DNA of 64,000 nt from a virus (taxonomy: Duplodnaviria > Caudoviricetes): positions 96,001 through 160,000 of IMG/VR virus record IMGVR_UViG_3300031994_000011. One strand, 5' to 3'. The notes under the pieces are model-generated. The model did no database searches. It saw only the letters and a program-made list of their open reading frames with translations, and was not told the DNA's origin. The position numbers and the translations under genes are program-made. Positions 3,857 through 57,344 of this stretch are shown here, piece by piece. The number at the start of each line of letters is the position of its first letter. Within the stretch, counting starts at the first letter, position 1.

Positions 3857-3858
3857 TT

Positions 3859-4941: not shown

Positions 4942-5141
4942 TTACTATAGATGATATTATATATAATCATGAGCAACTGGAAATGCGTTTAAAAAAAGCA
5001 CTTTCCACAATGGAATTAAGTAAAGAAGTTCGTAACATTCAAGCAGCTATTAAAGAAAATCAATAGCTGTGCCCGCACTTTAGTACAAAATATAATTGGG
5101 TACATGACGGAAAATGTCCCTATTGTGGAAAGAAGGAATAA
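4938..5141 (+). CDS. Small zinc-ribbon protein (1 in-frame TAG)
   Basis: ATGA overlap with previous stop; CPH...CPYCGK. Confidence 0.7.
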
Positions 5142-5142
5142 T

Positions 5143-5373
5143 ATGAAATTTGTTTTATATACATTACCAACTTGTGGTGTGTGCCACATGATTAAAACGA
5201 AATTAGAAAAAAAGAATATTAAATATGAAGAACACGATTTAACAGAAATCGCTGATTCATTAAATATAGACCATGCGCCGGTATTAAAAGTTATTAATGA
5301 TAATGATCCAGGTGCTTTCTTTATCACTAGTCCCGGGGAAATGGTAAAAATGATTAATAACTATATGGAGTGA
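5143..5373 (+). CDS. nrdH: Glutaredoxin/NrdH-like redoxin
   Basis: LYTLPTCGVC, HAPVL cis-Pro motif; directly upstream of nrdD. Confidence 0.8.
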   Translation: MKFVLYTLPTCGVCHMIKTKLEKKNIKYEEHDLTEIADSLNIDHAPVLKVINDNDPGAFFITSPGEMVKMINNYME

Positions 5374-11740: not shown

Positions 11741-11773
11741 AAATAAAGAGCGGTCAAAAGGCCGCTCTTTATT
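11741..11773. terminator. Bidirectional intrinsic terminator between convergent operons
   Basis: AATAAAGAGCGG-TCAAAAGG-CCGCTCTTTATT with A/T-rich flanks. Confidence 0.85.
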
Positions 11774-19409: not shown

Positions 19410-19433
19410 TAATCAGTCTCCTCCTTTTTACCC

Positions 19434-24200: not shown

Positions 24201-27200
24201 ATTGTGAACCGCCCATTTCACTATCTTTTTTTCCTTTTACGACAAAACTAGCTTTACTTTCTGTCTCTTTATCTTTAACTTGCTAATTTAAATTAGCAAC
24301 TATAGTATTAACTCCTTCTGACATCTATGCTAATGGAGCATTACTCTTTTCTATTTGTTGTGTATCCTTAGGCGAATTTACTGGCTCATTATTATTAGTA
24401 GAAGTATCAGAAGTTACATTAGAAGGATTTTCATTATCACTTTGTTGATATAAATGTGTGATCATTTCTTCTACTGAATGATATATCTAGGTATTAGCTT
24501 GTCCATTCATCCCAAGAACTTGTAAAAAGCTTTGTAACTCAGCAATACTTTTATCTCGTGTAACAGTAGAACCGGTAAAAGACCCATCAGCATTTTGTTT
24601 AAAGCCCCATACAGGAACTTCACCTTCAGTAATAAAATCATTTCTATCATTTTTTTGTATAATAATACTACCATCTGATAAATATGCACTTGTATAAAAA
24701 ACCCCTTCTTTAGCCTTATCAGGGAGAACTTTTATATCTGTGGGATTATCGCCTTGTAAAATATCTGACATATTACCTTGTTTATATTCATAATCATAGG
24801 TAGGTGATTTAACCTAAGGCTACTACTTATTATCACTGTCATTTTTAGTAGGCGGCCCATCTTTTTTATTTGCAAAATATCTTGCATCTGCTGCCCTACG
24901 TGCTGCTCGTAACGCAGCCTATCTTTCAAGTAAACTTTTATTATACTCACTTTGAAATAAGGCTTCCTATCTATCATATCCATTATTACTACCAACTACT
25001 ACACCATTATTAGGTAGAGTTGGATTATCTTCAGAGCCACCGCCATTTTCATCTGATCCATTGCCATTTTCATTTGATTTACCAAAAGCTTGTATGGCTT
25101 CTTCTGCGGCAGCACCTAAATTTAAAATTGCAGCAGCTGTTTCATTAGAAGCCTACGCTAATGTTTTTTCTTGATCACTTACTTGTTTCGCGGCTTCAGT
25201 GATTCCCTAACCAGCATTTTTTGCTCCATCAGCTACGTTATTAAGACCACTATTAGCATCATCCGCGGCATCACCAGTTCCTGCAACTGCATTTTCGGCA
25301 CCAGCAGCTGCTTCTGCCATTGCCTTCTATGCTGCTTCTTTTTCTTTTTGCGCCTCTTCTGCATTTTTACCATCTAATAAAGCCTAAATATAAGCCATAG
25401 CTCCTTCTACTTTAATATTAAACTAAGAAAGCTAAGCATCTGAATAGATCTCTTTAGCCTAATTAATTTGTGTTTTCCATTCTTTTAATGCTATTAATTG
25501 AGATTCAAGTTGCCAATTTTCTGCTTTAATCGCAGCTTGATATGTCTGATCAATAAGAGGATTTATAAGCTTTAAATCATATGGTTGAGGAATTTTCTTT
25601 GGTGGCTATGATGGACTTGATGGTGATGACGGTGAATCATCAACTGTTTTATCGGTAAAGATGTTCGCTCTTGGAACTCCAGTTGGGTTTCTTGGATCAT
25701 AAAATTCACCGGGTAATTCAGAATCTTCACCAAACTTAGGACCTGTAGAAGAATTACCTCCACTATTTTTATCATCATTTTTAAATGCCCATTCTCCAGC
25801 TTCATCTAATTTAGTGTGTATATTAATTGTAAGTTCAGAACTTCCTTTAGCAAGACTCTATATTAACTTTGCATATTTTGCATCTGATTCATCTTTTACA
25901 TGTAATTTTAAATTCCATTCTTTTGTCTCTACACCAGTAAGTCCCTATTTTGCTTTTTCAAACTATTGTTGCGTCATTGGGCTTTTACCATCTTCAACAA
26001 ATTTAAAACCATATTTAACCTAAAAATCTAAATGTTCTTGAGTGGTTTCTCCCCATTGTTTTTCTGCTTCTTCATAAGTTAAATCTTTAATATCTTTTAT
26101 TTGTTTTGATGTCAATGATGCAGCAGAAGTTTTATCTAGTGTATATATAGTCTTAATCCCTGTCTTTATAAGCCATATTTGATAATCATGTTCATTAAAT
26201 TCTGGTACTTTTCCTTCTCCATATTGCTCTAACATTGCTTTATCATATAATTGTCTCCAAGTATCATTTATATCGGAACTATAATTTTTTCCATCTGCGC
26301 TATATTGTACACCATTTTTAGGGTCTACACGCATATTATATTGAATACCAGTTTTCGTTGTTAAAGTTATAGTAGTAGCTTGTGTTTTTATATCATAATG
26401 ATAACCATATTTTTCTAAATCTTTAATAAAGGGATATTGCTATACTATCATCTGAGCATTTATAGCCGCCTGCACTTCATCTTTATTACTATAAGAAAAA
26501 GTCTTCCCACCAATAGTAACTTTACCATCTTTACCAAATAAAACTGTTGTACCTTCATGAATAACAAGAGTCCTTCCATCACCAAGATTAATATCAGCAG
26601 TTAATTTACTTTCTTTAGCAATTTGTTTAATTGTCCTTATTAAATTCTCTGTACTATAATCACCAGATATTGCCATCTGATATAAACTATTAACAAAAGC
26701 AGTATATGTTTCAGGAGATAAATTACCTTTTTCAAAAACTTCTTCATAAGCACTTTGAAGTTTATCAGCATCTCCACCCGCTGCTTCTATCATCTTATAT
26801 AATGAAACACCCTAAATTGATAAAGCCTTTAAACTTTTTTCCAAATCTTTATTTGTTTTTGCCATTGCTATAATTTCTTGCGCAGCATCTTTATATGGCT
26901 GTTGAAATTGATATTTACCATCAAGTTTAATAGGATTACCGTTATCATCAGTCATAAAAATCTCTGGCAATTCAATTATAACATCATCTGTAGTAACACT
27001 TCCTAATTTTTCCATAGCAACAACAGATTCCAATAGAAGTATCATACCATCAATCATTTCTATTTGAGAAGTCGCCATTGCTTTAAGTGCTTCATGGAAA
27101 TTGGTACTCATATCTGCGGCTCCACCCTACATTTGAAGACCAATTTTACCCATATTAACCATAGCGCCCTAACCATCAATATTTATTAAATTGCTAAAAG

Positions 27201-30200
27201 CCTAATTTATTAGTCGCGCGGCACCATCAGTATCCTTAGCAATCTAATATCCATAAAACATTAATGGCTAACCAGTAATAGTAGCTAAATTTTGGAACTA
27301 ATTAACTAAATTATAAAAGTCATCAACTGCCATTAAATGATAGCCAGTAGCATTTACTAAATCTTCTGGTTTAGTCGAAGTAATTTTTTTACCAGTAGCA
27401 TTATCAAAATATGTAAGCGTCATAGCCTAGTTCATTACTTTATAAGCTTTTCCAATAGAATTTATATAATTTAAAGGCCCTTGTAAATATTCAGGCAATT
27501 TTCTATTCATAAAATCATATTGTTCGGCCTATTGCATTTGAGCCTAAGCAATCTCTTTATAAATACTAAGTCTTTCTCTTAATGCTTGATTATCAGGACC
27601 ATTACTTAATTGCTATTGTAGCGCAGCTATATTAGCCATAGTCTTAGAAATATTCTAGCAGTCCTATCCAGCACCCTATAATGAATCTTTTAATGCTTCA
27701 AATGTTATTTCTGCGGCAACAGTGTCAACATCTTTTAATGCGGTATATAAAGCAATTGCTGCCTAAGTATTTAATTTAATACCATCGAGCGTCATAGAAA
27801 ATGCTGCCTAATTTAGCTATATACCAAGAACATTTTTAGCGAAATCTTGTAATTTTAATTTACCAACATTATCTAAACTACCTTTCAATCCATTAGCTAT
27901 AATATCTGCAAAATTTTTAAATAACTAACTAATTGCATCAGCTAATTCTGCAAGATCTTCTGAAAGCATTAAACTTCCCTATTCAGCAGCATTATAAATT
28001 GTTTGCATTATACCAACAATATTAGCGCCTTCTACTGTTTTTAATATACCATTCTATACATAACCACCATATTGTTTTAATTGATCATTTAATTGTTTTA
28101 TTGAACCTGGTATACTTTGAAGTCCTTTTAATTCTTGTGTATATTGATTCATCCATTTTTGATATTCAACAGAGTCTACTTTATCTTTATTCTCCTCTAA
28201 TGCAGCTATCATTTTAATAAGTTTTTGCTATCTCTAAGTAGTATAATCACTTTCTTTTCTTCCTAGTTCGCTCCATAAATCCGTAACATCAAGCCATTCT
28301 CCGCCAGTTAAGCCACTTAATCCTTCAACTTCCTATCCAATATTTCTCGTTATTTTATTATTTAAATCAACCATGGCTTGATTATATGTTTTCAATGCAT
28401 CAATATATTGTGGACTTCCTGCCTTCCAACCCATCATATTCGCAAAGGCGTTAAAATCAGTTATTCTTAATTTATCTCCGCCTAATAATTCTATAATATT
28501 GGATGCATCTAAAGCATCAACTAATTCCTCAGAAAGCATTATTCCTTGTTTTGTAAGTATCTAAGCAAAAGTATCAAAAGTCATATTAGAAGCATCGCCT
28601 AAAGCATCAATAACAACTTGCTATTTATCTCTTACACTTAAAGTTTTTGCAGCAACACTATTTATTTCTTCTAAAGTCGCATGACCGCTTGTAGTAATTT
28701 TATCTAATGCATAAGCATAAGCTTCATATAAATTATTTATTGATGTAACTACATATTGCCCTTCAGCAATAAGACTAACCGCGCCCGCGCCAGAAACACT
28801 TATTATTTCTGCAGTCGTAGCGTCAATGATACTTCCTGGTGCTGAACCTAATTGCTATAAAGCATTTATATATCTGTCAACCGAACTACGATATAAAGTA
28901 GTTATATTTTCAGCAGTTAAATCAACGCCACCATAATCAGCAATCATTTGCATCATTGCTATTGCATCTGCACCGCCAGATGTAATAATATCAAAAAATT
29001 CACTAAAAGAATCAAATTCGTTAGGAAGTTTTCCTCCTAAAGATTCAACATTTTTCTAAAAATCTTCATATGCTTTTTTTAGAGTTTTATATTGCTAAGA
29101 ACTCCTATCTATAATAGCAGTGCCATCTCCTTTTAATACATAAGGAATATTATCTGCCCATGCCATTACAGCATCTATAAAAGTAGATGAAATTTCTTTA
29201 TATCTTTCTTCAAGTATTTTTTTAATTTGAGCGGTAGAGCGTTGTCCAGAAGTTAATAAATTCATCAAGCCCTATGTTCCACGATATGTTCCATCATCAT
29301 TCTTCTATAAAAGTTCAATAACTTGATCCATTGTTTTTCCATAATGAAGCGCAATTGAAGCAATAGCTTGCTCGTCTAAAGCATTCATATTTGGAATTAA
29401 ATCAGTCATAAAACTATCATAAGAATTTGTTCTCTGATTAGCTAAATAATTAGCATAATAATCCATATATTCTTTACTGTCTTTAGCAAGATTAGAACCA
29501 AAATTGCTCATAAATTCATTCCAATCAGTAATAATATATGAATCTACTCCAGTTCTCTTTAAAAATTTACTTCCTTCCTAAGTTAAATTACCAGCTTCTG
29601 TTAAATAATCACTTAATTGTTTATTTTGAGCAGTAACAAAAGTAGAAATAGCATCTAAATTTAAAGAATCTGCATAACTTAAAAATTCTAATGAACTACT
29701 ATCTTGTAGATTATTATTTTTTATTAAATTAGCATAACTATCATTTAATGTACTTAATCCAATAGTTCCATTATTAAATGCTTCTTCTACTGTATAATAT
29801 ATATAACTTGCTGCCTGTATAAACTCTTCAGCATCATCAATAACAATTTGCCCATTAGTATTTAATTCATTCGCCCAATCTTGATTAAGAGTGGCTAATA
29901 TATTAGCAGTATCACCAGCAATAGTCATTTTACCAGAAAAAGAAGATAAATCACTAACTGCATTTGTCATAATAGAATTAAGCTGTTGATTAATTGCACT
30001 ATTTATTATACGGTAAGTGTTATCATCTATTTTTTCATCTTCATGTTGTTTACTATAAAAAGATTGTAATGTTGTTAATACACCAATAATATTATTACCA
30101 GCAACTGTTAAAACACCATTTTGTATTGTTGCCATAGACCCCATTAATTGAGCATTTAAACTATTTAAGTCTTCATTACTTAATTTAGAAGTTAAATAAC

Positions 30201-33200
30201 TAAGATTAAATTGTTTTCCCACAGAAAAATCTTTTAAAGACTCAATTTCACTTTGAATATTAGATTGAACATTTTCACGAAATTCAATCATAGAGCTTCT
30301 ATAGGAACTAATTTCATTTAAATACGCATCTGAAGTTTTATCCCAACCAAAAGAATCAGCTAATACATTCTAATCTAAGAAACGAATCTAACCATTTCCA
30401 GTTATCTAAGCATAGCCACCAGCAATCCATTGTTCGACAGTACTAACAAACTATTCTGCATGCCCATAAGTCTCAAATAAACCAGATAAATCTGTTAAAG
30501 ACATAGAACTCATTTTTCCAACATATGCCTAACCAATTTTTCCAACATCTCTAACATACGCAGACTGTAAATATTCTACACCAGTATTTAAAATATCTTC
30601 TGGAGCAGCGATACCTTTTACAAGACTATCATGATAAGCTTTAAGTGCTGCAGTAGTATCTCCAACTTTTAAAAGAATATTATTATTATCAACTATATAA
30701 CCAAGATCGCTATGCGCTTTTAAAAATGCTGCTGCATCAGCGTCAAGAAGCTGACCCTAAAAACCACGAATTGCCTAAAGCATTCCTTCTGTTGAAGCAT
30801 ATAAATATTTTTTTCTTTGCTAACTTGTTAAAGTAATTCCTTGACGTTTAGCCCATTTCTATGCTAAATTTAATTTTTCAATTCCATTTTCACCTTGAAG
30901 TATTTTTAACTATTCTTCTACAGTACTATTTATCTACTAAGACGACATTGTAGTAACCTTACGATAATACTACGTCATTGCCTACTTTAAAACTTTAACA
31001 TCTTTTTGAGTTCTATCAGAATCCATAAATCCTTCTATATCTACTTTTTGAGCTAAAGTTTGTTTTGTTAAATTATCAAAAATAATTGCAGTCTAACTCG
31101 TCCAAAGTCCGGCTTCTCTTAATTGATTCTATTGAGCTTCTAAATAATTTAAATATGCTTCTTGTTTTAATTGAAAACTATTGGTTAAACTGTCCCATTC
31201 AAACAAATCGCCAAAATTACTTGCTTCTTCTTTACCACTAAGTTTCATTAATTTATTATATTTCAACATAAAATCTGACATTTCAGAAGTTTCCATTGTA
31301 CCCTAGGTTAATAATGAGGTTGCAGAGCTTACATCAGATAAAAGCTAATCAACTTGTGAAAAAATACTTTCTTGGGCTTCTTTTGTAATACTTATACCAT
31401 ATTTTTCTTTTAATGCTTTTATTTTTTCTAAAGTAATTGAAAAATTTCCATTACCTTCATCAGTAAAATACTACGCAACTTCTTCTTCTGAAAGATTAAA
31501 AATCTTCATTATATTGCCAATATCATCGACAGTTAAATTATTTCTATTTTCTATTAATCCCTAAAGAAGAGTTTCTTTTGATTTCTAAAATTTATTTTTT
31601 TGACTGGCGACCCAAGCATCAATATACTAAGAAGTTTGTTTATCTACATCTCGGACCATTGTACTAACAAAATGTTCAAAATTGTTTATTTCATAAGTTC
31701 TATATCCAGTTCTTGTAAAGTATTGTTGTCCTAATTCAGTTAATTCACCAGTTTCAGTATTTATATAATCTTCTACTTTTGCACCAATTGTAGTTAAAAA
31801 TTCATTTATATTATCTATTGTAATATCAGATGTAGAGACTAAATTTAGCGCTGCAATAGGACGATTATTGTTAGCTTTTATTTTTGACACGGCGAAATCA
31901 TTTAATGATTTTAAACTAACAGTTCCCTATTTATAGCCTTCTTGGGCAGATTTATATAAGCCATTAACTGCATCTAAATAATCTTGTGCAGTTCTAAGAG
32001 TAACTTGACCAGTTTGTTTATATTCATTTGAAAATTTAGTATTAATTTGAGATAAAAGTCCAGCTTGTTCATCTGTAAAAACTTTTGTCTATCCAGTATA
32101 CTATCCAATTTCTCCAAACAAAGATGAATAAATATTTGTTATTTGTTCATCAATAATTCTTACAACATTCATCCAAGTAGCTTTATCTTCAGTAATAATA
32201 CCAGCATCCATTGCATCTAAAATTACATTCCTTAAACCGCCTAGACTTTCAACTAAACTATCACCAGTATAGGTAAGAATACCATCCTTTATTGAAATGC
32301 CATATGATTCTAAATATTCATTAATTGTACTTAATGCATCAGTTCCATCAGTAAAATCAATATTCCTAAAAGCGGCTTCCATAAAAGCAACATTAGCTTT
32401 ACCTTTTGTGGCTAAATCTTTAAGCCCATTAGCCTATTGCTATAATTGAGTTTGTACTGTAGTTGCCGTTTGAATTTCAGAATCAATAAAATTAGAAAGA
32501 GCCAAATTATATTCATTTGATGTGGTATCCCAATTAAATTTAGACGCTAAATCAGAAATCGCTTCAGCAGAAAAATTTAAGTTATCGTTTGGATTAATTG
32601 TAATGCCACTGTTACTTATTTGATTATTAATCCATTTTGTAGCTTCATTCTCATCCCAACCAGCTTCTATGAACATCGCAGATACATCTTCAGCACTAAT
32701 ATCATTTAATTGAGATATATAATTAGCACCCTTTTTAGTAAAAGGATTATTTTCAGCAATTATAGCTTTCATAGCTACAGAATACTTCTAAGTTACTGAA
32801 GCTTCCATATTCATTAATTGCTCATGATAAGCTTTCGCCGCGGCCGCTGTATTTCCGATACCTTTAATTACATTACCTTCAATTGTATATCCATAATCTT
32901 TTAAAAATTTTGCCGCCTAATCAGTAACTACGTCTCCAACATGAGCGTCAAGAGCATCTAATAAGCCATTAATATTTTTAAAATATAAACTTTCTATATC
33001 TTCAACCGTAAAAGTAACTCCGCGTCTATTTGCCCAATCTCTACCAACTCTAACTGCATCAGCTCCGCCCTTTTTAATAGCATCTATATCAGCTTGTACT
33101 GCCGCACGAGCAGCACTTTCAGTATAACCCAGTGCGCCAATATAATACTAATACATGGCATCAGTTAAAATTGTCTAATCTTTTGTTGTTTTTGCAGATT

Positions 33201-36200
33201 CCAAATATGCCTCTATATCTACTCTACTTGCTAAATATTTTTGTTTCTATGCTAATAACATTTTTGTAACAAGTTCTTTAGAATAACCCAATGTATATAA
33301 ATAGTCTTGTAAAGTACTCATATATGAAGAAAAAACTTCAGGAGATAATTGTAAAGATTTAGTATTTTGATCAAAAATGAAAACTTGATCAAAACTTTTA
33401 GTCTCGCTTTCTTTTCCCATCTATTCCATTATAGTTTTATATTTTTCATAAAAATTTCTAGCCTATGAAAAATCAGTAGTACCTTCTGAGACTAATGACA
33501 TAGCATCTGAAGCAGACTCCATTGAAGCATCTATAATATCATATATTAAATTTTCAGTTTTCTAAGACAAATCTTTTTTATATCTTCTAATTAAATCAAC
33601 TAATGAAGATGTTTTTATTGTATAAGTTCCATCACCATTATTTATAAAAGCGTTTTCTGGTACTTCTAAAACATTTTTTAAATATTCAACTTGCTATTCA
33701 GATAATGAATCATAATTTTGAATTGCTTCGGCAATAGCTTTTTCTTTACTTTGTTCATATTTATTTGTTTTAAAAGAAGCAATAACTTTTGATCGTTGCT
33801 AATCGGTAAGTGTTATCTTCCATTGTTTTTCCATCTACGCAATAAAAGCATTCCAATCCTATCCAATAAACTCATAAAGCCCGGTAATTTCATCCATTTT
33901 AAAATAGCTTGGAAATTCTTTCATAAATGTCTCTACGTCTTTTCCAAGTGTTTTAGCTAAATCAGACATAGTGGCTCTAGAAATTTCTTTATAATTATTT
34001 CCAATGGTAGAAAGAATATCTGGTTTAGAAACTTGAAATTCTTTATTATGTAAATCATCTAATAACTTTCGTTTATCACCTAATAATAAATTTGATCCAC
34101 TAATTTTATTTCTTAACCATTCATAATCCCTATTAAGTTTATTCCAATCTATAAGCATAGACTATCCACTAGTTAATTTATCTAATGGAATATTTGTTAA
34201 TTTATGAATAAGATCTTTATTATCTTCACTAATTGTAATTAATTGTGGTCCTTCATCAATAGATTTTATCGCGGCATCATATACAGAAGTCTAAGTCTTC
34301 TTATAGGCTTCCCATATCGCTACAGCCCAACCTTTAAGCTAATCTGGAAGATCAGAGAAATTGCCTTGTTTAATTTGGGCTAAATATTCTTTTTCAGATT
34401 TTCCCCAATCATCAATTGATTTAGGATCAATTGTCTTAGCTATATCTTTTAATGCTGATATTGCCTCTAAATAATTTCCTACGTTAATTAAGCTAGTAAC
34501 ATATGGAGTTAATAAACTATTTAATACTTCTTTAGCATTCTAATTCTGAAGCTATAATTGTTTTATTGCGTATTCAACAAAACTATTGTCATAACTAGCT
34601 TTTTCAGTAGTACTCAATCTTTCCCAAGCATCAAAATATGTCTCATAATATTGAACCATTAGTAAAGCAGTAGATTCGTCAAGTTCTTTTTGAGTTTTCT
34701 ATTTATATTCTTTTTGTAATATTTTTACTTTTTCAGTATTAGAAGCAGTTTTCCATGTAACCTATTTTCCTTTTTCAAACGTATATTTTTGATCTTTAGG
34801 TAAATTAAATTTATCAAAATTTCCTATAGCGGTTTTAGCATCTTCAAAATCTTCATTTAATTCAGCTAAAAAATCTTGTCTATAAGTAATATATTTTTCT
34901 TTTAATTTGCTCCAATCATTAATATAATATTTTCCACCAATATTAGTAAAATCTTCTTTTAAACTTAATCCTAAAGTCTAAGCTAATTTAGAAGCATCCT
35001 AAATCTACATGCCTTTTTCGACTTTAGACATAATATCCTAAAAATCTTCTAGCTGCTTTAATGTTTTTGTAGTCAACGAAGAAAATTCAGTTATTAAATT
35101 CATAGGCATCCTATCAATTATTGCAAGAATCTCTGATTCGCAACTAAAACCTAAATCAGATAGATTATCTCCTAACTAATATAACCCAGAAATAGTTCCA
35201 TCCCAACCATAAAAATATGACTATGCTTGCTATCTTTTAGCTAAATCAGTCTATGCAGATAATTTTTTACCAATTGATAAATAAAGTTTCAATATCTATG
35301 AACCAGTCTTCTAAGTAATATTACCTGAATTTATTAAATTCTATAACATATCATAAAATTCATTTATAGCATTTAATTCATTTGAACCTAAATTTTGTAA
35401 AAAGGTACCAGATTTATCTGCTATTTGTGCCTTTATTGTTCCTAATAATGTATCAGCTCCTTTTATTGTAGTATTATATCCATCTTTATTTCTATATCTA
35501 TTAATAAAAGAAGCCTTTACAGTATCTTCTATGGTTCCATAACTATATTGATTACTATATAATGCATTTAATACAGCTGCTTGATTTTCTCCAACAATTC
35601 CAATAGATTCTAATTCCTTACCGAACTGTTGTCTACTTAAAATATTTACTTTTTTTGTTAAAGAATTAAAATTATTTTTTTGGCTGGGAGTGAAATTTGT
35701 CCAAGTAGTCGTCCAAAAATTTTTTATCGTTTCAAGCTATCGTGAAAGATCTTTATCAACAAATTCATTAAACTATTTTGTAGTTATCATTCCATCATCA
35801 TTATATTTTTCTTTTATCCTAGCTATTATTTGTTCACTAATTATATTCTAAACATTACTAAATCCTTCTAAAGTAGTATTTTTTACACCAATTAAAGAAG
35901 AACCAACAACAGTACTAACACCACTTCGTAATCCAGACTAAGATAAAACTTTAGAATTTAAATAATCTTTATATTCTTTAATATAATTATTTACTTGTTC
36001 TAGAAAAAATTTACCTAACGAAGTATCCTAATTTTGTTTAAGCCAATCATATATTTCTACTATCTCATGATCATTTGTTACATCTTTATCTGACATTAAT
36101 TCAATCATTCGAGCATATAACGTTTCATATCTTCCACCATATTTTTTATAGAATAGTAAAGAATTATTAAAATTGCTATCCAGACCGCCATATGCTAAAT

Positions 36201-39200
36201 CACGAAAGTCATTAGAACCAAAAAAAGATGGACTAGTTCCATCTAATAAATTTGCTTTTATAGTACCTTCTAACTATGGTGTATATACTCCTGCTAATTG
36301 TGCGGCTTCTAATGCTTTCCGTATAATAAGTTGCTAATAATTAGGAATTGCACCTCGTAAAACTGCAGAAGCATTAAGTTCATAAAACTATTTTTGATCT
36401 TTACCAGCCAACCCTTTAAACTATTTAAATGAAGCTATTCCCATATATTGTTCTATAAATTTTTCTCTTTCAACACCAGTGAATCCACTAGCATCAGCAA
36501 CTCTCTAGGCGATTATACGTAATTTAGTATCATCTGTAAATTTTGGTACAGTGCCCTACATTTCTTTCTATTCATGCTATTCAGAAGCTCTTAATTTTTC
36601 ATACTATTTTTTAGCTGCCTATTTTGCCTTATCTACACTCTATTGTCTTACATTATTTAATTGTGCCTAAGCAGCAATTAAATCAACAGTAACATTTCCA
36701 GCTGAATCCATATAAGATATTAATTCAGGATAAGTTTGCGCTAATTTATTCGCGGCTGTATAATACTGCTACTAAGCCTAAACACTATCATATCTAGCTG
36801 CCTATAATTTTTTAAGAGAAGCTATTTGATCTGCTAAACTTTTAGCCTAATTTTTCTTTTGTAAAGATTCATTATTTGCTTGAGCAGCCTACTATGATAA
36901 ACGTTTCATTTTTTCTGTATACGGCTAAACAATTTTAGTCCAATTAGAAACAACACCAGTAATAAGACCTAATCCAGCGCCAATCGCTGCACCCCATGGT
37001 CCTCCCATTGCCAATCCCATCGAAGCATATGTCGCAGTAGAAGCAGCAATACTAAGTCCTGCTTGTGCCTTAGGATTTTTTACCATAGTACTCGCAGCAG
37101 AGAGCGCTAGACCAGCTACACTTAATCCAGTACGCCAGCCAACTTCATGCTGCGTCATATTTTGACCAATTCGACTATTATTAACTTTATTACGAGCTCT
37201 ACTAAGAATACCTCCACTTGCACGAGTAGCACTTCCACCGGTAGCTGCCGAATTCATTTGCCCCTATGCCTGTTGTCGGCTTGCTACTATTTCTCTATCT
37301 TGTGCTTTATATTGCTCAGTTTCTTGCTGACGTCCTGCAACTCTTTCTTGCACACCAGCTTGAGAAACTGCTCTTAAATATGCTCTAATTTCCTATATAA
37401 ATGAATGAATTTTAACTTTTATACCATTAAAAACTAAATTTACAATATTAGCAACATTATAAAAAGCTTTACCCATAGCTGCAATTGCAGATACAGGAAG
37501 ACCAAATACTGTAGTCATACTAGATAAAGATTTTACAATAGAATTTTCAAAATCTAAAAATCCTTTATATAAATTTTGTACTCCGCTTTCAGTATAAAGT
37601 GACTGTAAACTAGTTTGTAATTGCTGTACTTTTGCATCCACACTATCTAATGTTTTAAGATATTGTAACTGAGAAGCATCCTAACTATTATTTGCTATCT
37701 AAGTCAATTCTTTTAATCTGTCATAACTAGAAACCAATGCCAAGAAACGAGATTGCTGTCTATTACCAGCCATAATAGTAGCAATATAACGTTGCGTATT
37801 GGTATCAATAGTATCCCACTTTTCAGCTAATTCCATAATGACATCATCAAAATCACGAAATTGACCCTATGTATCATGAATAGTAATACCAACACTTTGT
37901 AATGCCTTATCAACTCTATTAAGACTCATTTCCTATCCTTCACTATCTTTTAATAAAGTAGGATCACTGGTCATTTCACCATAACGAGAAATAATAGATT
38001 TCATAGCACTACCAATGTTTTCAGCAGACTCACGGGTAGCTTCAATCATAACCGCCATCATAGCAGTAGTATTTTGGAAACTAGAACCTACCGCTTGAGC
38101 AGAAGAAGCTGTTTTACTCATAGCAGTAGCTAATTCTGAAACACTTGTAGCAGAACTTGCGGCGACGGCAGAGTAAGCATCTACGACTTGCTGTGCATCT
38201 GTCATTTCCATTTTAAATGAGCGCACAGCATTAGTCATATAATTAGTTGCAGCAGTATAATCTAAACCAGAAATACGAGACATCTTTAAAGTTTGCTCAG
38301 TTAAAGCCATAACATCAGCCATTTGCAAACCTTGCTGATAATATAACTGAGAAACTTTATATACACCAGATATAGAGGCCGCATATTTTGTCGCCATATC
38401 TGTATATTTATCCATTTGGCCCCATAAATCATTCTGATCCATATCAGTGACAATAGCAATTTCTGTTATTGTCTTATCTAACTATTTTACCGTAGAAATT
38501 ACACTTCTAATAGCTTGTCCAATTTTTCTAACAACAGTATATACACTAAACCATCTCTGAACAACACCTTGGATTTTTCCAACCATTTGTTCAGCTGCCT
38601 GAGCTCTTGCTAACTAAGCATTATATTCTCTAACTCGTTCGACAGGTATTGATGAATTAGCTGGATTATTTCCTCCACTTTTACCTAAACCTTTTGTTGA
38701 GTTTAATCCTTTATCTTGTGCTGCTTTTAATGCACTCTATAATTGAGTAACTCTATTATTTAAATCATTATTTTTACCTTGAAGAATTGTAATTTGATCT
38801 TGTAAAGCTTTTGTTGCATTTTCAATATCTGTTGCCGTTTGTTTCTCGGCTGCTAAATTATTTTGTGCTACATTTTGCCCTTGAGTTGCGGCAGCAAGCT
38901 ATGATTTACGTTTATTAACAACTGCAGTTATTTCATTATAAGCAGACTATAAACGTGTAATAACAACTTGTGCAGCTTGCTAAATATTACCAACATCTAG
39001 AAAATTTAAAGCATTTGTAGCCATTGTAGAAGTCAATCCAAATTTACTATCTGTTACGCTATTTTGTATTGCTTCTCTTAAATTATATATTATATTCTCT
39101 AAATCAAAATTTTTTAAAAGAGCGTCTCCAGTTAAATTAAAAGATCCTTTTCCAAACTATCCAAATAACGTACTATAAATATTTTGTGCAGATCCTTGAC

Positions 39201-40032
39201 CTGTTCCTTTTAACTAAGTTTGTAAAGTATTTTTTAAAATCTATATATGTGATTTTAACGTCTATGGTGTTAATCCACCCATAAAATTAGTTAATAACTA
39301 TTGCTGCCTATCAGTATTTCCAACTAATAATTTACTTAATCCAGATCCAACCATCGTCTGAATTTCTTCCATAGCTTTTTTATAACTGGCAGCAGCTCTT
39401 TCTACATTTTCTTGTAATGCCAAATTATTATCTTGTTTGGCTACTGCTGCGGCTTCAGCTTTCTATCGTCTATTTACATCAGCTTCAGCTTGCTTTAATT
39501 CTTTTTCTAAATTAGCAATTTTTTGCGCGGACTACTCAGCTTTAGTTCCTAATGCTGCGAGCATTTCTTGTGCAGTAGTAGTATCACCAATATTAAAGTT
39601 AATTTTCTTAAAACTATCAGCTAAATCTCCACCTGACTGAACGCCCTCTCTAATTGTCTTATCTATAAATTCATCAGCTTTTACTTTAGCTTCTTCTAAA
39701 TCTTTAACTATTGTTTTAAGGCCTTCACCAAAAGCAGACTATTTTAAATCCGGTAATTTCAATTGTTGGAATAACTAACCAATATTTGCAAGTCTTTGTC
39801 CCATTAAATCATATTTTTGAACAATACTCTATATTTGACTATTACTAGAAGCTTTCGGCATGGGATTTTTAGCTAATCGTTTTAAATCTCCTTCTGCTCC
39901 TTGAATTGCTTTAGTTAATTTTTTACCAATAATTGATCCTGCATCAACATTCTATAATGCACTTTTAAATTTCTATATACTAGCCTAATATCCACTTATT
40001 TTAGCAGTCATATCTAAAGTAATATTAGCCAT
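21298..40032 (-). CDS. Tape measure protein, ~6,244 aa, TAG-recoded
   Basis: TP901-type TMP core (AMSKTASSA, ESAENIGSAMKSIISR, GQFRDFDDV, AGNRQQSRF) and C-terminal G[TAG]LGPEL. 14 ORF-track fragments from 24487 to 38442 share the frame of ATG 40032 and TAA 21298. Confidence 0.85.
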
Positions 40033-51164: not shown

Positions 51165-51942
51165 TCACCCCCTTCTTTCTTTTTTATTTTTCTTTGGTGT
51201 ATAAAACGTATATTCACTATAGTTTTTCTTCTTCGACATCTTTAGTGCCTTATCTTCATAGTACTTTACCCTATAAAGAGCATACTATAACGCTGAGAAG
51301 CGGTCCTTTTCTACGGAACGTGAAATACGTTCTATTTTAAATTGGTTCTGCGCACCAGTTGGTTTAAGTTTCAAATTATTTAATTCATCCATTAGTCGTG
51401 ATGTCATTATATAAGGCATTAAAAAAATATGTCTATCTACACTAGTCATATTTTTACCTTTTTTTGTCTTTAATAATTTATCTTTTATTACATTTTCATT
51501 CGCTAAGAAAGCGACCGAACCGTTATTTATTTGGGAGAAGAAGTTCGAATGTATTAAGTCATCATTACTTGAACCAGCTTTTATGTCATAGATTATTCCA
51601 TTTAAAGAAGGCCAAGGCTCATTGCTCTAGACTTTTTTCTAAGGTGGTAAATGATGATCATTATTAAAGGCATAATATGATGGAAATTGCTATCCAGTTT
51701 TAAAATCTATAGATGGCAGAACCATAGCATCTAATAGACCAATACCGGGACCGTTACCGTCAATCACGATTTCGCGCGGATTATATAGTTGAATAAGTTT
51801 TTTTAGCCTTGGAGCTTGTTCCGTAATATAGTTCGCGCCATGAATAACTTCAGTATAAATAACTTTCTTCTTAAAGCTGGTTTTTTCGGGCATTACTTTA
51901 ATAACCATAACAGCGGTATTCGCAGCGTATCTCGCAACGTCT
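51165..51942 (-). CDS. terL: Terminase large subunit, exon 2 (nuclease domain)
   Basis: DVAR..VIDGNGPG..KDRFSAL[TAG]YAL. Confidence 0.9.
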
Positions 51943-52218
51943 CATTTATATTCCATTAAATTCGCTACATTTAATGCGTTCTTTTATGAACTGCTATATG
52001 TTTCCATATAGATTAGACTATATCTTCATCTTATTAAAAGATGCTCCCTTTTTCAGACACCAAACGCTTGTATCTTACATAATAGTCGTTGAACCTTTTC
52101 GTAAAGAAAAATCTATAAAATTCTTTACAAACTTGGCTGCGGATTACCTTTTAATACGGCTTCCCGCAATTTAAGGAGTTATTGCCCTGTCATCACTGGC
52201 AGGCGGGGCAAGCTGTTC
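51943..52218 (-). mobile_element. ORF-less group I intron (276 nt) in terL
   Basis: Exon GGGGU pairs with GCCCC; AAATTGCGGGAA, AATCCGCAGCCAAG, GTTCAACGACTA and AAGATATAGTCT core elements; ends in G; splicing restores YLIGV|DVAR. Confidence 0.92.
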
Positions 52219-53237
52219 ACCCCTATCAGATAAAATGTGTTTTTATTAACAGGATTCTCTTGTGCTTTTTTTTCACATTTTAATAAAGTTCTTCTTTTTG
52301 CTAATTTTTTAGAGTCAAGCCAAGCCTATTTATTATTACCAGTCCATAGACTTAAACTTTCACGAGAAAAGCTTTCATCAGACACGGTAGCTGAATAACG
52401 CTGGTCCATCATGGTTGCTCTATCCAAAAGACCATAATGAAGAGGAACTTCATAACTTAAACCCCATACAAAATACTATCTTGGGCGCAAAACAGCATTT
52501 ACAGCACACTAAATTAACTTACTATACATGAATACTGTCTTTTCGCGCGCGGTAGTAATAAAAATTTGAGGAGAAGTAGGTTCTTCTGGATTAAGTGTTC
52601 CATCAACCTATCTACGAGCAACGTTCATTTGAGGAAGCAAAACTTCCGTGTAATCTGTTTCTTCTATTGTCGCGGCCTACTCTAAAATACCGCATGTCGC
52701 GCGCAAACCACGGCTCGTGTCTTTTGAAACAACCGTTATATTACTACCATTTTTAAAATGTAATTCATAATAGTTACCACTCTTTTTCTAACCAGTTTTA
52801 CCATCATCAAGGCGAGTAGTAAGCTATTTTCTTAATAAAGGCCAATGACGAAAAATTTCTTCAAATTTAGCTTCAGCAATTTTTATTACTGTACCTTTTA
52901 CGTCAGAGGCGATGAATATGTTAGAGTTAGGAAGTAGGACGGCGCGCACAACAGCACTAAGATAAGCGGTAAAAGACTTGGATGTCGCGCGTGTAGCAGT
53001 CCAAAAATGGTATCTGTAACGCATTGATGCGCGCAAAGCAATTCGTTGAAAAAGAAACAAATGAAAATGCTTAGCATCACTAGAATCTTGAATTTCATCA
53101 AGAAAGCAATCAGGATAAAGAAGCCAATAGTTTAAATATTTTGTAAATAACTATTTATTAGCATCTAAAAAAGATTTCGTTAATACTACGCCTTTCTAAA
53201 TTGGTATTCCATTTCTGTAAGCTACTTCTTCAGCCAT
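52219..53237 (-). CDS. terL: Terminase large subunit, exon 1 (ATPase domain)
   Basis: FQRIALR, Walker-A-like TRATSKS, SRGLRATCGILE[TAG] Walker B, IFITTA coupling motif; exons sum to 599 codons. Confidence 0.9.
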
Positions 53238-54166
53238 TATACCAATTCACCTGCCAACTCATCCTATCCCTAATAATCAACATCGGCAGTACTGTCAAAC
53301 TAGACAGCTTCGTTCTCAATTTCTTCAAGGCGCTAAGTAATGTTGAAGCGTTCTTTTCTATCCTCAACTTGCTATGCGAAATTACCTTCATTTACTACTA
53401 ATCTCTTTAAATAATTCTGTATATTCTGCATACAAAAATCAATATCATCTTTAGGCTAAGAAACCCATTTAGGATGCCAACCAAGTTTTCCATAATAAAC
53501 CATTAGTTCACCTACTGACTCAAAGTCAGCGGCATTTTTCGCGTTAGAGGCTTCAAACTTGGCTATTTTAATAATGTTATCGCGGGCATCCATATCCTTT
53601 TTTATATCATGCCCCTCCCGCAAGCCTCTCTTTATGCGTAACTAAATTTCGCATAGGTCGCGCGCGTACTATTGTAAAATAGGAGTAGAAACGTTTTGCG
53701 TAGCAATAATCTTATTATAGTAATCCTAAAGAAAAAGCAATTCTTCCTTTGTATATGTGGAGGACCAAGTTTTTTTTAGTCGCGCAATTTTAGCACTTGA
53801 AAGAGCTTCAATTTCTTCATCTATTGTACCTTCTTCGCGCGCTAAGCGCCAACGCTAATTTTCATCGCTCCATTGTAGGGCTTGATAATGCTAATCTAGT
53901 AACGTATTAAAGTAGGCCGTTAAGGTATGATCTTTATGTATTTTATAAAGTGATGTCCATTTATTTAAATCAAATGGCACATCAAGATATCTGCATAACC
54001 TATCTACCTATCCTAAGTTTTCTTGGTCTATCATTACTTCTAAGCAGGAAGTACAAATTAACGATCTATGGGAAGGAAAAAATTTGGAAGGCGTATATTG
54101 AAATTCACTTTCTGGCTTCTATGACTTGCATCGCATGCAACGTCGGGTCTTTGGAACGTTTGTCAT
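53237..54166 (-). CDS. Putative terminase small subunit with N-terminal Zn finger, TAG-recoded
   Basis: CMRC..CTSC, YLDVPF, LKKTW..LLFL[TAG]DYY; stop overlaps terL start. Confidence 0.6.
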
Positions 54167-55424
54167 ACTTGTTCTGCACCCCCCGTTCTATTCTTCTCTT
54201 CTTCTCGCATTCCTTACACACAGAAGAGAAGTGGTCTTTTCTACTATTATTTACACCAAAGAAGACAGTATCGCGTGGAAACACGCGGCCGCATCGAATA
54301 CAAGCTTTCTGCTCTTCTATTGGTGTTTCTATAAGTAAGCGATTCTTCTTTGCCGTAATAGCAATTGCGTTTGGTATTTCGCGCGCAAATATGTTACTTA
54401 AGTAGTTTTCGTTGTACTTTAGGCCAAAGCGCGCGAGCAGTTCCTCTATTATTTCTGGATATACCATTTTTTTAATTTTCATATCAAGCAAGGCATTACG
54501 TATAGGCGAGAAATTACACATCTAGCGGTAGCGCTAAAAGTCAAAAATTAGGGTGCGGCCGTAGGTCTAAAATTTTTCATGCATGTATTCATAAAGTGCC
54601 TGATAATTATTTATCAAGGCTCTTATGTGGGCTGGGTTCTCCCAGTCAAATGTATGTTGGCGCACTACCCATTTTATCATCCCGTCCTACCTTACCTCAT
54701 AGTCCTTTAAATTTTTTGAAATTGAGCTAAGTAGCGCGTCATCTACTTTTTGCTGCCACTACTATTGTGTTACCCAATAAAAGGAATCAGCGGTCCAATC
54801 TACGAATTGGGCGCGAGGCTTGTCAGCCGCCATAAAGTGTATGGTGGGCTTGTAGGCATCTTTAAGATAGTATTGGTGCTTACGCAGGTCCGCTAACTGA
54901 TGTTTTAATTGATAAAGGCGATAGGAGTCAGGTAGAAAGTAGGTGTTCTCGTCAGGCGGCAGCTTCCCTTCATTTATGGCTACTAACTTTTCTATGCGCT
55001 CAATAGATTGCCAAAGGTCGCGCATACCGGGGATGTCGCTGTCGCCCGGATCTAGTAACTCGCCTGTCTTCTTATCAAATTTGGGATGATTTATTACGGG
55101 CTTGGGATTGGTGTAGGGCCGCCGTATGTTCGCCGGATGTAGGTCTTGCTGGTTTGTTGAAGGATTCTAAAGGAGCTAATCTAGGGAAAGGTTTTTGTCG
55201 TCTTTTTTCTTGAAGGTTGCGTAACGTTTATGGCCATCTGTTACCTATCCTCGTTGGACAGCATTATAACCTTCTTCATCTTTTCCGTATAGTATGTAGG
55301 ACCCCATTTGGTCTAACTAGTCTGGGGTGGGCGGTTTTTCTAATTGACTTAAAATTTGTTTTACAGCAGCCACGCGGTCGGTGTCTCGCTGGATGCTGTA
55401 ATCCAGGGTGTATGCTTTTTTCAA
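54105..55424 (-). CDS. First gene of virion operon, hypothetical protein with C-terminal Zn finger, TAG-recoded
   Basis: TTG start after GGAGG; fragments 54762 and 54105 in frame; CIRC..CKEC. Confidence 0.7.
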
Positions 55425-55462
55425 TATCTACGCCTCCATTTTAAATCCTTACTTATAGCTTA

Positions 55463-55688: not shown

Positions 55689-56483
55689 TTACTTTTTCAA
55701 AACGTCTGAGAGAGTAACAAAGCGTCCGTTTTCGATGGCCTGTTGAAAAGCGTTATATTTTCCCGCATTGTATTGCGACATAACCTTGCCCGCTTTGATG
55801 GTTAAACCTTTTCCCGATGTAAGGCCGTCAATATCGGATTGAAATTGTCTTTTATCAGTCCATACACAAACATAATTTTTTACATAATTGATAGCGCCGT
55901 CAATGTCGAATTTTTCGCAAAGTTTATAAATGTTCTCTTTGTCAATGTCATCAAACATTCCATAAACAACGGTATCAAAGTTTCCCGCCATAAAGTCAAA
56001 AACCGTCGCTTGTGTCCATGTCTTGCCGTTGTGCCCGCATTCGATAACACCAAACCGTTTAGAGATAATGTCGTTATGCAAAGCGTCTTTTACATAAAGC
56101 ATAGACGGGCGAATAAAGGCGAATTTACAAACAAGCGCGCAACGGACGAGAACTTCAAGTAAATCACCAAACGCGCCTTTGTCGTTGTCCATTTTATAGC
56201 CTTCTCTTTTACAAACAGCTACGAACGCAATATAATCAATAACGGTTATTTTCCCTTTTTCCATTGCGTAGCGCGTAACTGCGGAATAAGTAAAGGCGTT
56301 CAATGCGCTTTCGCTTTCGGACGGGAAAACTGCAGGGAATTTATCCATGCAATCATTGATAATTGCGTCTGACTCAGTTTCACAATTCAGGAAGGAACAC
56401 AGAGCCTCCGGATTAATTTTTTCAATCATTGCGCGGACGGTGTTTTTTTGCAGGGTAGAGAGGGTATAACGTTCGGTATTCAT
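55689..56483 (-). CDS. Hypothetical protein, 264 aa, no TAG
   Basis: ORF track; own promoter (TTGCAA-17-TAGAAT at about 56538-56566) and terminator. Confidence 0.8.
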   Translation of the reverse strand: MNTERYTLSTLQKNTVRAMIEKINPEALCSFLNCETESDAIINDCMDKFPAVFPSESESALNAFTYSAVTRYAMEKGKITVIDYIAFVAVCKREGYKMDNDKGAFGDLLEVLVRCALVCKFAFIRPSMLYVKDALHNDIISKRFGVIECGHNGKTWTQATVFDFMAGNFDTVVYGMFDDIDKENIYKLCEKFDIDGAINYVKNYVCVWTDKRQFQSDIDGLTSGKGLTIKAGKVMSQYNAGKYNAFQQAIENGRFVTLSDVLKK

Positions 56484-56634
56484 AGGATACCTTCTTTCCG
56501 GGCTTTTGCCCTAAAATTGCCTTTTCGGCTATAAGTATTCTATCATAGATAAAAACAGATTGCAAGCTTTTTTTTGAAATTCCATATGTTAACACTTTTC
56601 CATTAATTGACATTTACATATATTGACAATCATT

Positions 56635-56698
56635 TTAGCACTCACTTAAAAAGAGTGCTAACAATTTTTTGTTAGCACTCTCTACCAGTGAGTGCTAA
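56635..56698. promoter_or_regulatory. Two perfect CIRCE elements (HrcA operators)
   Basis: TTAGCACTC-N9-GAGTGCTAA at 56635-56661 and 56672-56698. Confidence 0.93.
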
Positions 56699-56704
56699 TA
56701 TTTC

Positions 56705-56788
56705 ATGAAACGTTTCATCATTTCATTATTTTCATGAAACGTTTCATAGAGCATTTCATCATTTCATCGTTTTCATGAAACGTTTCAC
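56705..56788. promoter_or_regulatory. Three LacI/GalR-family operator-like palindromes ATGAAACGTTTCA(T/C)
   Basis: Copies at 56705, 56734, 56775. Confidence 0.65.
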
Positions 56789-56812
56789 GCGGTTACCACC
56801 ATAAAATGAAAA

Positions 56813-57018
56813 TATTACGAAAATGTTACGATTGTAATACTTTTGTAACAATTTTTTTGTACTTTTTGGCCATTTTTTGACCATAAACGCCTTGGATGTA
56901 ATACATCCAAAGCTGAAGGTTGCATTTTTGAGTCAAAAATGCTATAATTAGATGATGGAAGGAGCTTCCAGAGTCTGTAAATGTTACGGAAATGTTACAA
57001 TTGTAACAGAATCGTAAC
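56813..57018. promoter_or_regulatory. WalR/OmpR-family direct-repeat boxes (TGTWAH-N5-TGTWAH)
   Basis: TGTAAT-acttt-TGTAAC 56833-56849 and TGTTAC-ggaaa-TGTTAC 56982-56998; one-mismatch copies at 56813 and 57002. Confidence 0.6.
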
Positions 57019-57110
57019 AATTCCAGAAACTGGTGGATCCGCCCACCAGAGGCAGGCGCCAGCGGCGCCGCCGCTCTCCCGTCTCCCGCCTGGTCCCTAA
57101 TATATACGAA

Positions 57111-57173
57111 GGAGCTGGAGCTGGAAGCTGGAGCTGGAAAACGGAGCTGGAGCTGGAGCTGAAGAAAGGAGCT
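57111..57173 (+). repeat. GGAGCT hexamer repeat tract in 5' leader
   Basis: Seven exact GGAGCT plus variants, ending in the RBS of gene 57180. Confidence 0.85.
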
Positions 57174-57179
57174 ACAACA

Positions 57180-57344
57180 ATGAAGAGCTACGAAATCATC
57201 TACAACAGGGCGCGGAAAGAATTTAATGTCTGGGCGATCGGAAGCAACGGCAACGCGGAGATCGTCAAGCGGGCCACCACAAAAAGGAGTTATGAATTGT
57301 GGCTCATGCGTAAGGGCGTGAGCAATTGGACCGATAGAACGTGA
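57180..57344 (+). CDS. Small early protein (distant paralog of 58867/60168)
   Basis: RBS AAAGGAG; YNRARKEFNVW..IVKRATT. Confidence 0.75.
   Translation: MKSYEIIYNRARKEFNVWAIGSNGNAEIVKRATTKRSYELWLMRKGVSNWTDRT

Follow-up and report, generated by a model that had tools for sequence, protein, structure and literature searches.

Tandem CIRCE elements in the early/late control region of a large TAG-recoded phage are candidate operators for the host repressor HrcA

Why would a phage carry operators of the bacterial heat-shock repressor HrcA and no heat-shock gene? The question is raised by two adjacent elements of the CIRCE type (controlling inverted repeat of chaperone expression) at positions 56635 to 56698 of a 64,000-nucleotide stretch of DNA (hereafter the window, whose numbering is used unless stated otherwise), which spans bases 96001-160000 of the 171,958-bp IMG/VR virus record IMGVR_UViG_3300031994_000011. 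Both are exact TTAGCACTC-N9-GAGTGCTAA elements matching the consensus arms at 18 of 18 positions. The spacer of CIRCE-1 is ACTTAAAAA and that of CIRCE-2 is TCTACCAGT, each unique among all fetched loci. The elements are separated by 10 bp (56662-56671), with a start-to-start distance of 37 bp. In 100 dinucleotide-preserving shuffles the chance expectation was 0.00, even with up to three mismatches allowed, and no further CIRCE was found at ≤3 mismatches in the window or at ≤4 mismatches in the whole genome. An earlier note on this DNA had described two exact CIRCE copies 10 bp apart in a non-coding gap; that description was accurate, and on sequence grounds the pair is confirmed as genuine CIRCE-type (HrcA operator) elements.

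The sites are orphans. A Pfam six-frame profile search of the complete genome identified no HrcA, HSP20, or Cpn10, and tblastn of the genome with five GroEL and six GroES queries from other loci identified neither protein. No chaperone family was found in the open reading frames (ORFs) beside CIRCE, here or in relatives. The absence of a heat-shock gene thus holds genome-wide, and no class I heat-shock gene lies under the control of these elements. Because the phage lacks HrcA and chaperone genes, the binder would have to be the host's. Full-text literature searches found no paper on CIRCE or HrcA sites in phage genomes and none on HrcA titration or on phages that use DNA as a decoy for transcription factors of the host; HrcA operators on chaperone-less phages are not described in the literature searched.

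The genome is that of a large, uncultured, recoded phage of gut type. With the standard code, almost no long ORFs were found over 10.6-46 kb of the window, whereas reading TAG as glutamine gave a continuous minus-strand operon; the late/structural part (11772-55439) is readable only in this way. Products of this operon are a portal protein and members of further structural families of phages, and the plus-strand part encodes a DNA polymerase, an anaerobic ribonucleotide reductase, and a dUTPase. No integrase above the cut-off and no resolvase was found, so the phage looks virulent, and a prophage-induction switch was considered unlikely for the same reason. The capsid-like protein shares 34% identity with that of phage phAss-1 and 25-30% with those of large Enterococcus and Clostridioides phages. 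Clostridia are a class with established HrcA/CIRCE control. phAss-1 belongs to the "code 15 clade" of the human gut, with hosts predicted to be Clostridia (PMC10607447).

The CIRCE pair lies in a 696-bp gap (56484-57179) without a credible ORF. An extension of the left-hand gene to 56585 by reading TAG as glutamine was rejected, since it requires two TAG codons and would overrun the gene's own promoter. Genome-wide, both the strand map and the GC skew mark this gap as the single transcription divergence point, and the single convergence lies near 107.7 kb of the record. The pair therefore occupies the master control region of the phage (hereafter the hub), from which late genes are read leftward and early/middle genes rightward.

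Are the sites conserved? An IMG/VR scan for tandem perfect CIRCE returned one other contig, L001, in which four CIRCE recur every 49 bp and are flanked by the TGTTAC/GTAACA block that this phage has as well. A separate scan for single perfect CIRCE returned at least 112 loci. Among the matches listed, 12-14 loci share proteins with this genome (L083, L076, L001, L165, L171, L084, L087, L089, L121, L129, L161, and L160, with L100 matching more weakly), on contigs of up to 141-176 kb (L129 is 176,419 bp). L162, which has the common hub style and no detected protein match, was counted with them. The 15 related contigs, again among the matches listed, hold at least 26 CIRCE sites, 21 of them perfect, with 25 different spacers. 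The non-coding DNA around CIRCE is unalignable between relatives. Invariant arms, without compensatory changes, beside 25 freely varying spacers point to selection for binding by one conserved sequence-specific protein and argue against descent of a DNA fragment or RNA pairing.

The position of CIRCE was also conserved. In all ten mappable loci it lies 0.7-2.8 kb from the homologue of a sigma-like gene that encodes 444 amino acids in this phage, with differing intervening genes. Complete or near-complete relatives have CIRCE only at this spot, and in fragmentary contigs all copies lie within 800 bp of each other; the number per genome is one to four. Nine further relatives fetched via the sigma-like protein (41-56% identity) had no CIRCE within 10 kb, a complete 181-kb relative had none anywhere, and phAss-1 had none at ≤2 mismatches. 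The CIRCE-less relatives have other palindromes at the same spot. Conservation in related phages, which the earlier note had proposed as a check, is thus real and tied to a fixed syntenic place, and it is not universal.

We compared the placement of promoters around CIRCE, calling promoters by consensus matches. With loci oriented so that late genes lie downstream, the distance from the last CIRCE end to the -35 hexamer of the first strong late-side promoter was 69 bp in this phage (where CIRCE-1 lies 5' of the -35), 76 bp in L083, 81 bp in both L129 and L160, 84 bp in L076, and 85 bp in L161; in L001 it was 42 bp. An interval of 69-85 bp is the room required for a back-to-back promoter facing the opposite way. 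Early-directed promoters with a -10 hexamer ending 0-20 bp before CIRCE were identified in L129 (TTGACA-17-TAGAAT with TG, 8 bp to CIRCE), L076 (TTGATT-17-TATTAT, 17 bp), L161 (TTCATA-16-TATTAT, abutting CIRCE), and this phage (TTTCCA-16-TATATT, 11 bp). L001 was counted as a possible fifth case, via a neighboring CIRCE. This arrangement in four or five of ten oriented loci compares with about 0.065 expected per site at random positions in the same regions, whereas a late-directed promoter ran into CIRCE in one of ten, about as expected. We regard the excess as a modest enrichment that is supportive and not conclusive. In heat-shock operons of the Bacillus type, the classical operator of HrcA is a CIRCE directly 3' of a sigma-A promoter (Zuber and Schumann 1994, as cited in PMC10602874).

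What, then, might the sites do? We give an even chance to the reading that they are host HrcA sites co-opted by this phage lineage for cis-control of the hub promoters. We infer that, in an unstressed cell, free GroEL would hold HrcA in its DNA-binding form and HrcA would bind the tandem sites of the incoming genome. Bound HrcA would then block the overlapping or inward-firing promoter or promoters (TTTCCA-16-TATATT and the two TTGACA boxes), and the leftward TTAGCA-18-TAAAAT inside CIRCE-1 might be blocked too. Relief would follow when HrcA is inactivated by heat, by protein-folding stress, or by occupation of GroEL with phage proteins, and also when replication has produced more sites than the small HrcA pool can fill. 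Transcription from the affected promoters would thereby report both the folding capacity of the host and the copy number of the phage. The same titration would also derepress host groESL and dnaK, which could benefit the phage as a by-product and not as the primary function. We favor cis-control because of the fixed position, the geometry, the arrangement of promoters firing into CIRCE, and the precedent of phages phi29 and Nf.

In these lytic Bacillus phages, transcription is repressed through boxes for the host's Spo0A that lie in the early/late promoter region (PMC2731898), a placement that lets the physiological state of the host gate phage transcription. The likeness lies in the lack of lysogeny genes, a global regulator encoded by the host and not by the phage, and operators at divergent early/late promoters; here there is no hrcA, and CIRCE lies between both promoter sides. 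The systems differ in that Spo0A reports sporulation and HrcA reports the protein-folding state, and no alternative life-style such as spore entrapment is known for this phage. Furthermore, phi29, with its 19-kb genome, is unrelated to this 172-kb TAG-recoded siphovirus-like phage, which is known here from sequence alone. Host-regulator operators in the control region of a lytic phage are therefore known, whereas operators of a heat-shock repressor without a chaperone gene are undescribed in the literature searched.

A second comparison is with class I heat-shock operons (groESL and hrcA-grpE-dnaK-dnaJ of Bacillota and other phyla), which have the identical 9-N9-9 inverted repeat. Adjacent sigma-A-type promoter-like elements may be a further likeness, with CIRCE directly 3' of a putative -10 in several of the relatives. 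The phage sites differ in lying among unrelated palindromes in an early/late hub with no chaperone gene, and binding of HrcA to them is a prediction. Tandem copies occur in a few bacteria as well. In a scan of 185,579 prokaryote species, with one genome per species, tandem perfect CIRCE were found in 22 genomes (Acidimicrobiia, Saccharibacteria, Kangiella, and Acholeplasma-like bacteria), and the neighboring gene, where identifiable, was groES/EL or dnaK. The spacing was 31-61 bp, mostly 31-35 bp; two HrcA sites 31-61 bp apart are thus a natural configuration.

Several points weigh against cis-control by HrcA. The phage looks virulent, so it is hard to see what it would gain if the host repressed one of its promoters. 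The set of loci is small and includes close kin (L129/L160 and L165/L171/L084), and L083, L089, L121, L160, and L087 show no promoter into CIRCE at the threshold used. The phage's own rightward candidates are mediocre: TTTCCA-16-TATATT scores 9 of 12, and the two perfect TTGACA boxes, present upstream as the earlier note had said, lack good -10 hexamers. CIRCE lies at about -118 to -134 of the strong late-side promoter, which is not a repressor position, and extra CIRCE copies in L001, L129, and L160 have no recognizable promoter. Finally, absence from nine close relatives and two complete genomes implies that phages can do without the function or replace it. The alternative offered in the earlier note, that the sites control flanking phage promoters, accordingly gains from the fixed place, the late-side distance, and the roughly half of the loci with a promoter firing into CIRCE, and loses from the other half.

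The earlier note had preferred a DNA decoy, in which replicating genomes sequester HrcA and so raise groESL and dnaK for folding of the capsid and of tail proteins several thousand residues long (2,546 and 6,244 residues in this phage). On this reading, effects on phage promoters would be incidental. The genuine, orphan, and conserved CIRCE that this requires were found; sequestration independent of position fits poorly with copies that are few and fixed in place. Each genome has one to four CIRCE at one syntenic spot with constrained geometry (69-85 bp in six loci), whereas sites serving purely as a sponge would be free to lie anywhere and would be expected in many copies, like the 19-copy palindrome of 19 bp described below. 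In the decoy's favor, the sites are perfect-consensus, tandem, and presumably of maximum affinity, and relatives hold up to four CIRCE per array, some of them away from recognizable promoters. The phage encodes giant structural proteins yet no chaperone genes, and, among the matches listed, about 40% of other CIRCE-bearing viral loci have Hsp20, GroES, or HtpG adjacent (some may be host flanks or plasmids). HrcA has few chromosomal targets, which a few hundred phage copies could outnumber. Against this, chaperonin genes were not found in the CIRCE-less relatives, so there is no complementary distribution. Moreover, in the established model massive phage protein synthesis should inactivate HrcA anyway via GroEL titration, autoregulation of hrcA buffers titration, and the literature searched holds no such phage decoy. 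We consider a decoy function unlikely.

The earlier note had extended this idea to a sponge for several regulators, which the data bear out in part. Other operator-like repeats do adjoin CIRCE, namely three ATGAAACGTTTCAT-type palindromes and two TGTTAC/GTAACA blocks (A and B). The LacI-like palindrome, however, is absent from the relatives' hubs, and the TGTTAC/GTAACA block, an inverted pair of direct repeats that fits a WalR-type consensus too, is common only to the closest relatives, L001 and L083. Neither a LacI-family gene nor an OmpR-type regulator gene was found in the phage. Blocks A and B bracket the first early promoter, 169 bp apart, and resemble paired operators that act by DNA looping. 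No DnaA (even at one mismatch), Rex, CtsR, LexA, CodY, or Fur consensus was found in the hub, where the CcpA cre consensus has one match, at one mismatch (56762).

Other palindromes were found in the hubs of relatives. Perfect TTGTGAA-N4-TTCACAA sites, which we take to be the textbook Rex box, are interleaved with CIRCE in the hub and early region of L129 (ten sites, 3354-5171 of that contig) and L160 (four sites). Sixteen GAAC-N4-GTTC sites are similarly interleaved in L087, where one lies about 20 bp 5' of a perfect CIRCE at 2723 and a perfect CGAAC-N4-GTTCG, the Gram-positive LexA consensus, abuts a degenerate CIRCE-like half-site at 1798. The multi-copy palindromes of the early arrays differ by relative, Rex-type in L129 and GAAC-N4-GTTC in L087. 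In L183, a multi-copy palindrome TTTAGGTG-N5-CACCTAAA takes the role of this phage's 19-bp palindrome. The control regions of the family are thus modular palindrome panels, several members of which equal known host-repressor operators and of which CIRCE recurs most widely. This pattern supports involvement of host regulators; by itself it is silent on whether they are read or soaked up.

A broader proposal joins reading and soaking up. In this clade of large TAG-recoded phages, host-repressor operators would form a titration switch coupled to replication, the hub being sensor and sponge at once. On a single incoming genome, host repressors (HrcA, and Rex- or LexA-type repressors in relatives) would shut the hub promoters; hundreds of copies would exhaust them, so that phage promoters fire and host regulons, including chaperones for the giant virion proteins, are derepressed. 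We regard this as speculative and improbable. Two known systems offer partial parallels to the CIRCE pair. Host LexA is read directly by phages such as GIL01 and CTXphi, which likewise use host-type operators for a host stress repressor (the relative L087 has LexA-type sites); those systems control lysogeny or induction, whereas this phage has no integrase or resolvase. The E. coli datA locus is a chromosomal titration site for DnaA, and clustered high-affinity sites here could similarly lower the free amount of a low-abundance DNA-binding protein as copy number rises; the difference is that there are two sites per genome, tied to promoters and to a fixed position.

The remaining explanations do less well than cis-control by HrcA. 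One is that the sites dock a host protein for another DNA transaction, such as marking an origin, providing a pause or handle during DNA entry, or anchoring the genome, with HrcA acting architecturally. The dense, gene-free palindrome block at the divergence point coincides with the local minimum of cumulative GC skew, and the other hub palindromes vary between phages in the way that rapidly evolving origins or iterons do. The skew here, however, just tracks the coding strand, the hub lacks a DnaA box even at one mismatch, HrcA has no known architectural role, and the placement relative to the physical ends is uninformative, as the terminal repeat is probably an assembler overlap. We find docking quite doubtful.

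Less probable still is that the sites are not HrcA's at all and serve either a phage protein of the same specificity or, as RNA hairpins, a long structured leader. Most early genes are of unassigned function, and each palindrome would fold if the hub were transcribed; no RNA family was found in the hub with Rfam. On the other side, 21 sites match the host consensus in 18 of 18 arm positions without compensatory changes, the signature of a protein recognizing one fixed sequence and not of RNA pairing; the six-frame profile search found no HrcA-like gene, and convergence on the exact site in several lineages is unlikely.

The least likely explanation, a neutral relic left by capture of a host heat-shock promoter or by loss of a chaperone gene from the phage, could draw on the frequency of CIRCE beside Hsp20, GroES, or HtpG on viral contigs (an ancestor could have had one) and on its absence from several close relatives, but two perfect copies would not persist neutrally amid non-coding DNA diverged beyond alignment, and distinct spacers with invariant arms speak against it. 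A captured host fragment was rejected, as all 22 bacterial tandem-CIRCE loci are unlike the hub and the hub matches no GenBank phage. A fragment of a host groES upstream region, which the earlier note had kept in view, was checked and is not what we found, since no heat-shock locus, bacterial or viral, was similar to the flanking DNA. Matches of 30 bp to L077, L095, L096, and L153 were discarded because they extend over CIRCE and its AT-rich spacer, which is similar in these loci, while the flanks are unrelated. In 50,697 GenBank phage records, the hub and the 18 kb around it had no relevant DNA match, and the group I intron described below alone matched.

Table 1. Features of the window in and around the hub (strand given relative to the window; a dot marks features without strand)
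Feature	Position	Strand	Basis or remark
2,546-aa tail ORF	11772-19412	-	TAG read as glutamine
6,244-aa tail ORF	21298-40032	-	TAG read as glutamine
444-aa protein with in-frame TAG codons; opens the late operon; syntenic anchor	54105-55439	-	phrog_5767 sigma factor, E 4.7e-19
264-aa protein, first late-side gene of the hub	55689-56483	-	no lead from Pfam, PHROG, or Atlas
Leftward promoter TTGCAA-17-TAGAAT with TG, for the 264-aa gene	56537-56565	-	consensus scan
Early-direction promoter-like TTTCCA-16-TATATT	56597-56624	+	consensus scan
Two perfect TTGACA -35 hexamers	56607-56612, 56623-56628	+	sequence
Promoter-like TTAGCA-18-TG-n-TAAAAT (TGcTAAAAT) inside CIRCE-1	56632-56661	-	consensus scan; putative function
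CIRCE-1	56635-56661	.	exact match
CIRCE-2	56672-56698	.	exact match
Three ATGAAACGTTTCAT/C palindromes, LacI/GalR-type core AAACGTTT	56705-56788 (at 56705, 56734, 56775)	.	sequence
TGTTAC/GTAACA four-half-site block A, 5' of first early promoter	56813-56853	.	sequence
First 19-bp cassette palindrome (GGATGTAnTACATCC core) and first early promoter	56892-56948	+	sequence
First early promoter TTGCAT-17-TGcTATAAT	56920-56948	+	sequence
TGTTAC/GTAACA block B, in leader of first early gene	56982-57022	.	sequence
First early cassette gene, 54 aa, function unassigned, GGAGCT repeats 5'	57180-57344	+	

The genes on either side of the hub (Table 1; aa, amino acids) were examined. The 264-aa protein had no relatives in an IMG/VR search, and among the related loci a homologue was found in L076 only. 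Because the gene at that position varies among relatives, the 264-aa gene is not a conserved partner of CIRCE. In the alignment of the 444-aa protein, Cys380, Cys383, Cys408, and Cys411 are invariant and form a C-terminal Cys4 motif. A profile search of PDB sequences gave no match for this protein, and Foldseek with an AlphaFold model (pLDDT 70, pTM 0.40) found nothing. Its sigma-factor name is a PHROG-based label alone, and a late sigma role is putative.

To the right of the gap, small plus-strand early gene cassettes begin, each with a 19-bp palindrome 5' of it; between 56894 and 63336, the palindrome GGATGTAnTACATCC occurs 19 times. About nine GGAGCT repeats (57111-57173), which contain Shine-Dalgarno-like GGAG units, form the leader of the first early gene, and a GC-rich stretch (57040-57100) lies before them. 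These repeats could be a ribosome-loading or standby leader.

Further observations concern the genome as a whole. A group I intron (Rfam RF00028, 95 bits) lies at 51994-52228 on the minus strand, between late ORFs 51165-51908 and 52179-53237, and probably interrupts a gene for packaging or structure; in DNA sequence it is similar to introns of Clostridioides, Staphylococcus, and Lactococcus phages. No tRNA gene was found within the window, so any suppressor tRNA would be encoded elsewhere in the genome or supplied otherwise. The record ends share a 127-bp direct repeat (1-127 and 171832-171958 of the record). Since its length matches a common assembler k-mer overlap, the repeat is probably such an overlap and the record ends arbitrary, and positions relative to physical ends are not interpretable. 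Phages related to phAss-1 resemble this phage in their large size, TAG recoding of late genes, giant tail proteins, and predicted Clostridia hosts. They differ in the lack of CIRCE in phAss-1 noted above, and PMC10607447 is silent on promoters and heat shock.

The wider distribution of CIRCE on viral contigs was surveyed with Pfam for 150 ORFs flanking perfect CIRCE in about 100 loci (among the matches listed, as for the counts that follow). HSP20 was found in 19 ORFs, Cpn10 in 17, HSP90 in 5, and HrcA and Clp_N in one each. About 40% of the loci have a canonical operator with a chaperone gene, and this phage family falls in the remainder. The chaperone neighbors suggest that mobile elements care about chaperone supply; the chaperone-bearing loci include host flanks and small rolling-circle replicons with Hsp20. 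Seven rolling-circle Rep proteins and many HSP20 are among the flanking ORFs. In eight contigs of about 5-7 kb (L074, L082, L088, L101, L113, L122, L125, and L139), CIRCE lies between ORFs of 146 and 415 aa; such contigs are probably small plasmids with Hsp20 that have been classified as viral. A perfect CIRCE lies 55-61 or 79-86 bp from one end of about ten IMG/VR contigs (L077, L095, L153, L086, L150, L111, L092, L144, L110, and L078), some of them 136-139 kb long, and this near-fixed offset suggests a recurrent junction or terminus beside CIRCE.

A few host regulators are known through which phages read the state of the host, among them Spo0A (in phi29) and LexA (in several temperate phages). 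If HrcA binds the CIRCE pair, the early/late decision of this phage or the chaperone supply of its host would be coupled to folding capacity through a few dozen non-coding bases. The Rex- and LexA-type boxes in the hubs of relatives suggest that a general, modular "host-state panel" may exist in these large phages of gut and rumen. Such a panel would affect the annotation of non-coding phage DNA and the prediction of hosts, since its operators would betray the regulators of the host, and it would matter for the behavior of phages in stressed gut communities.

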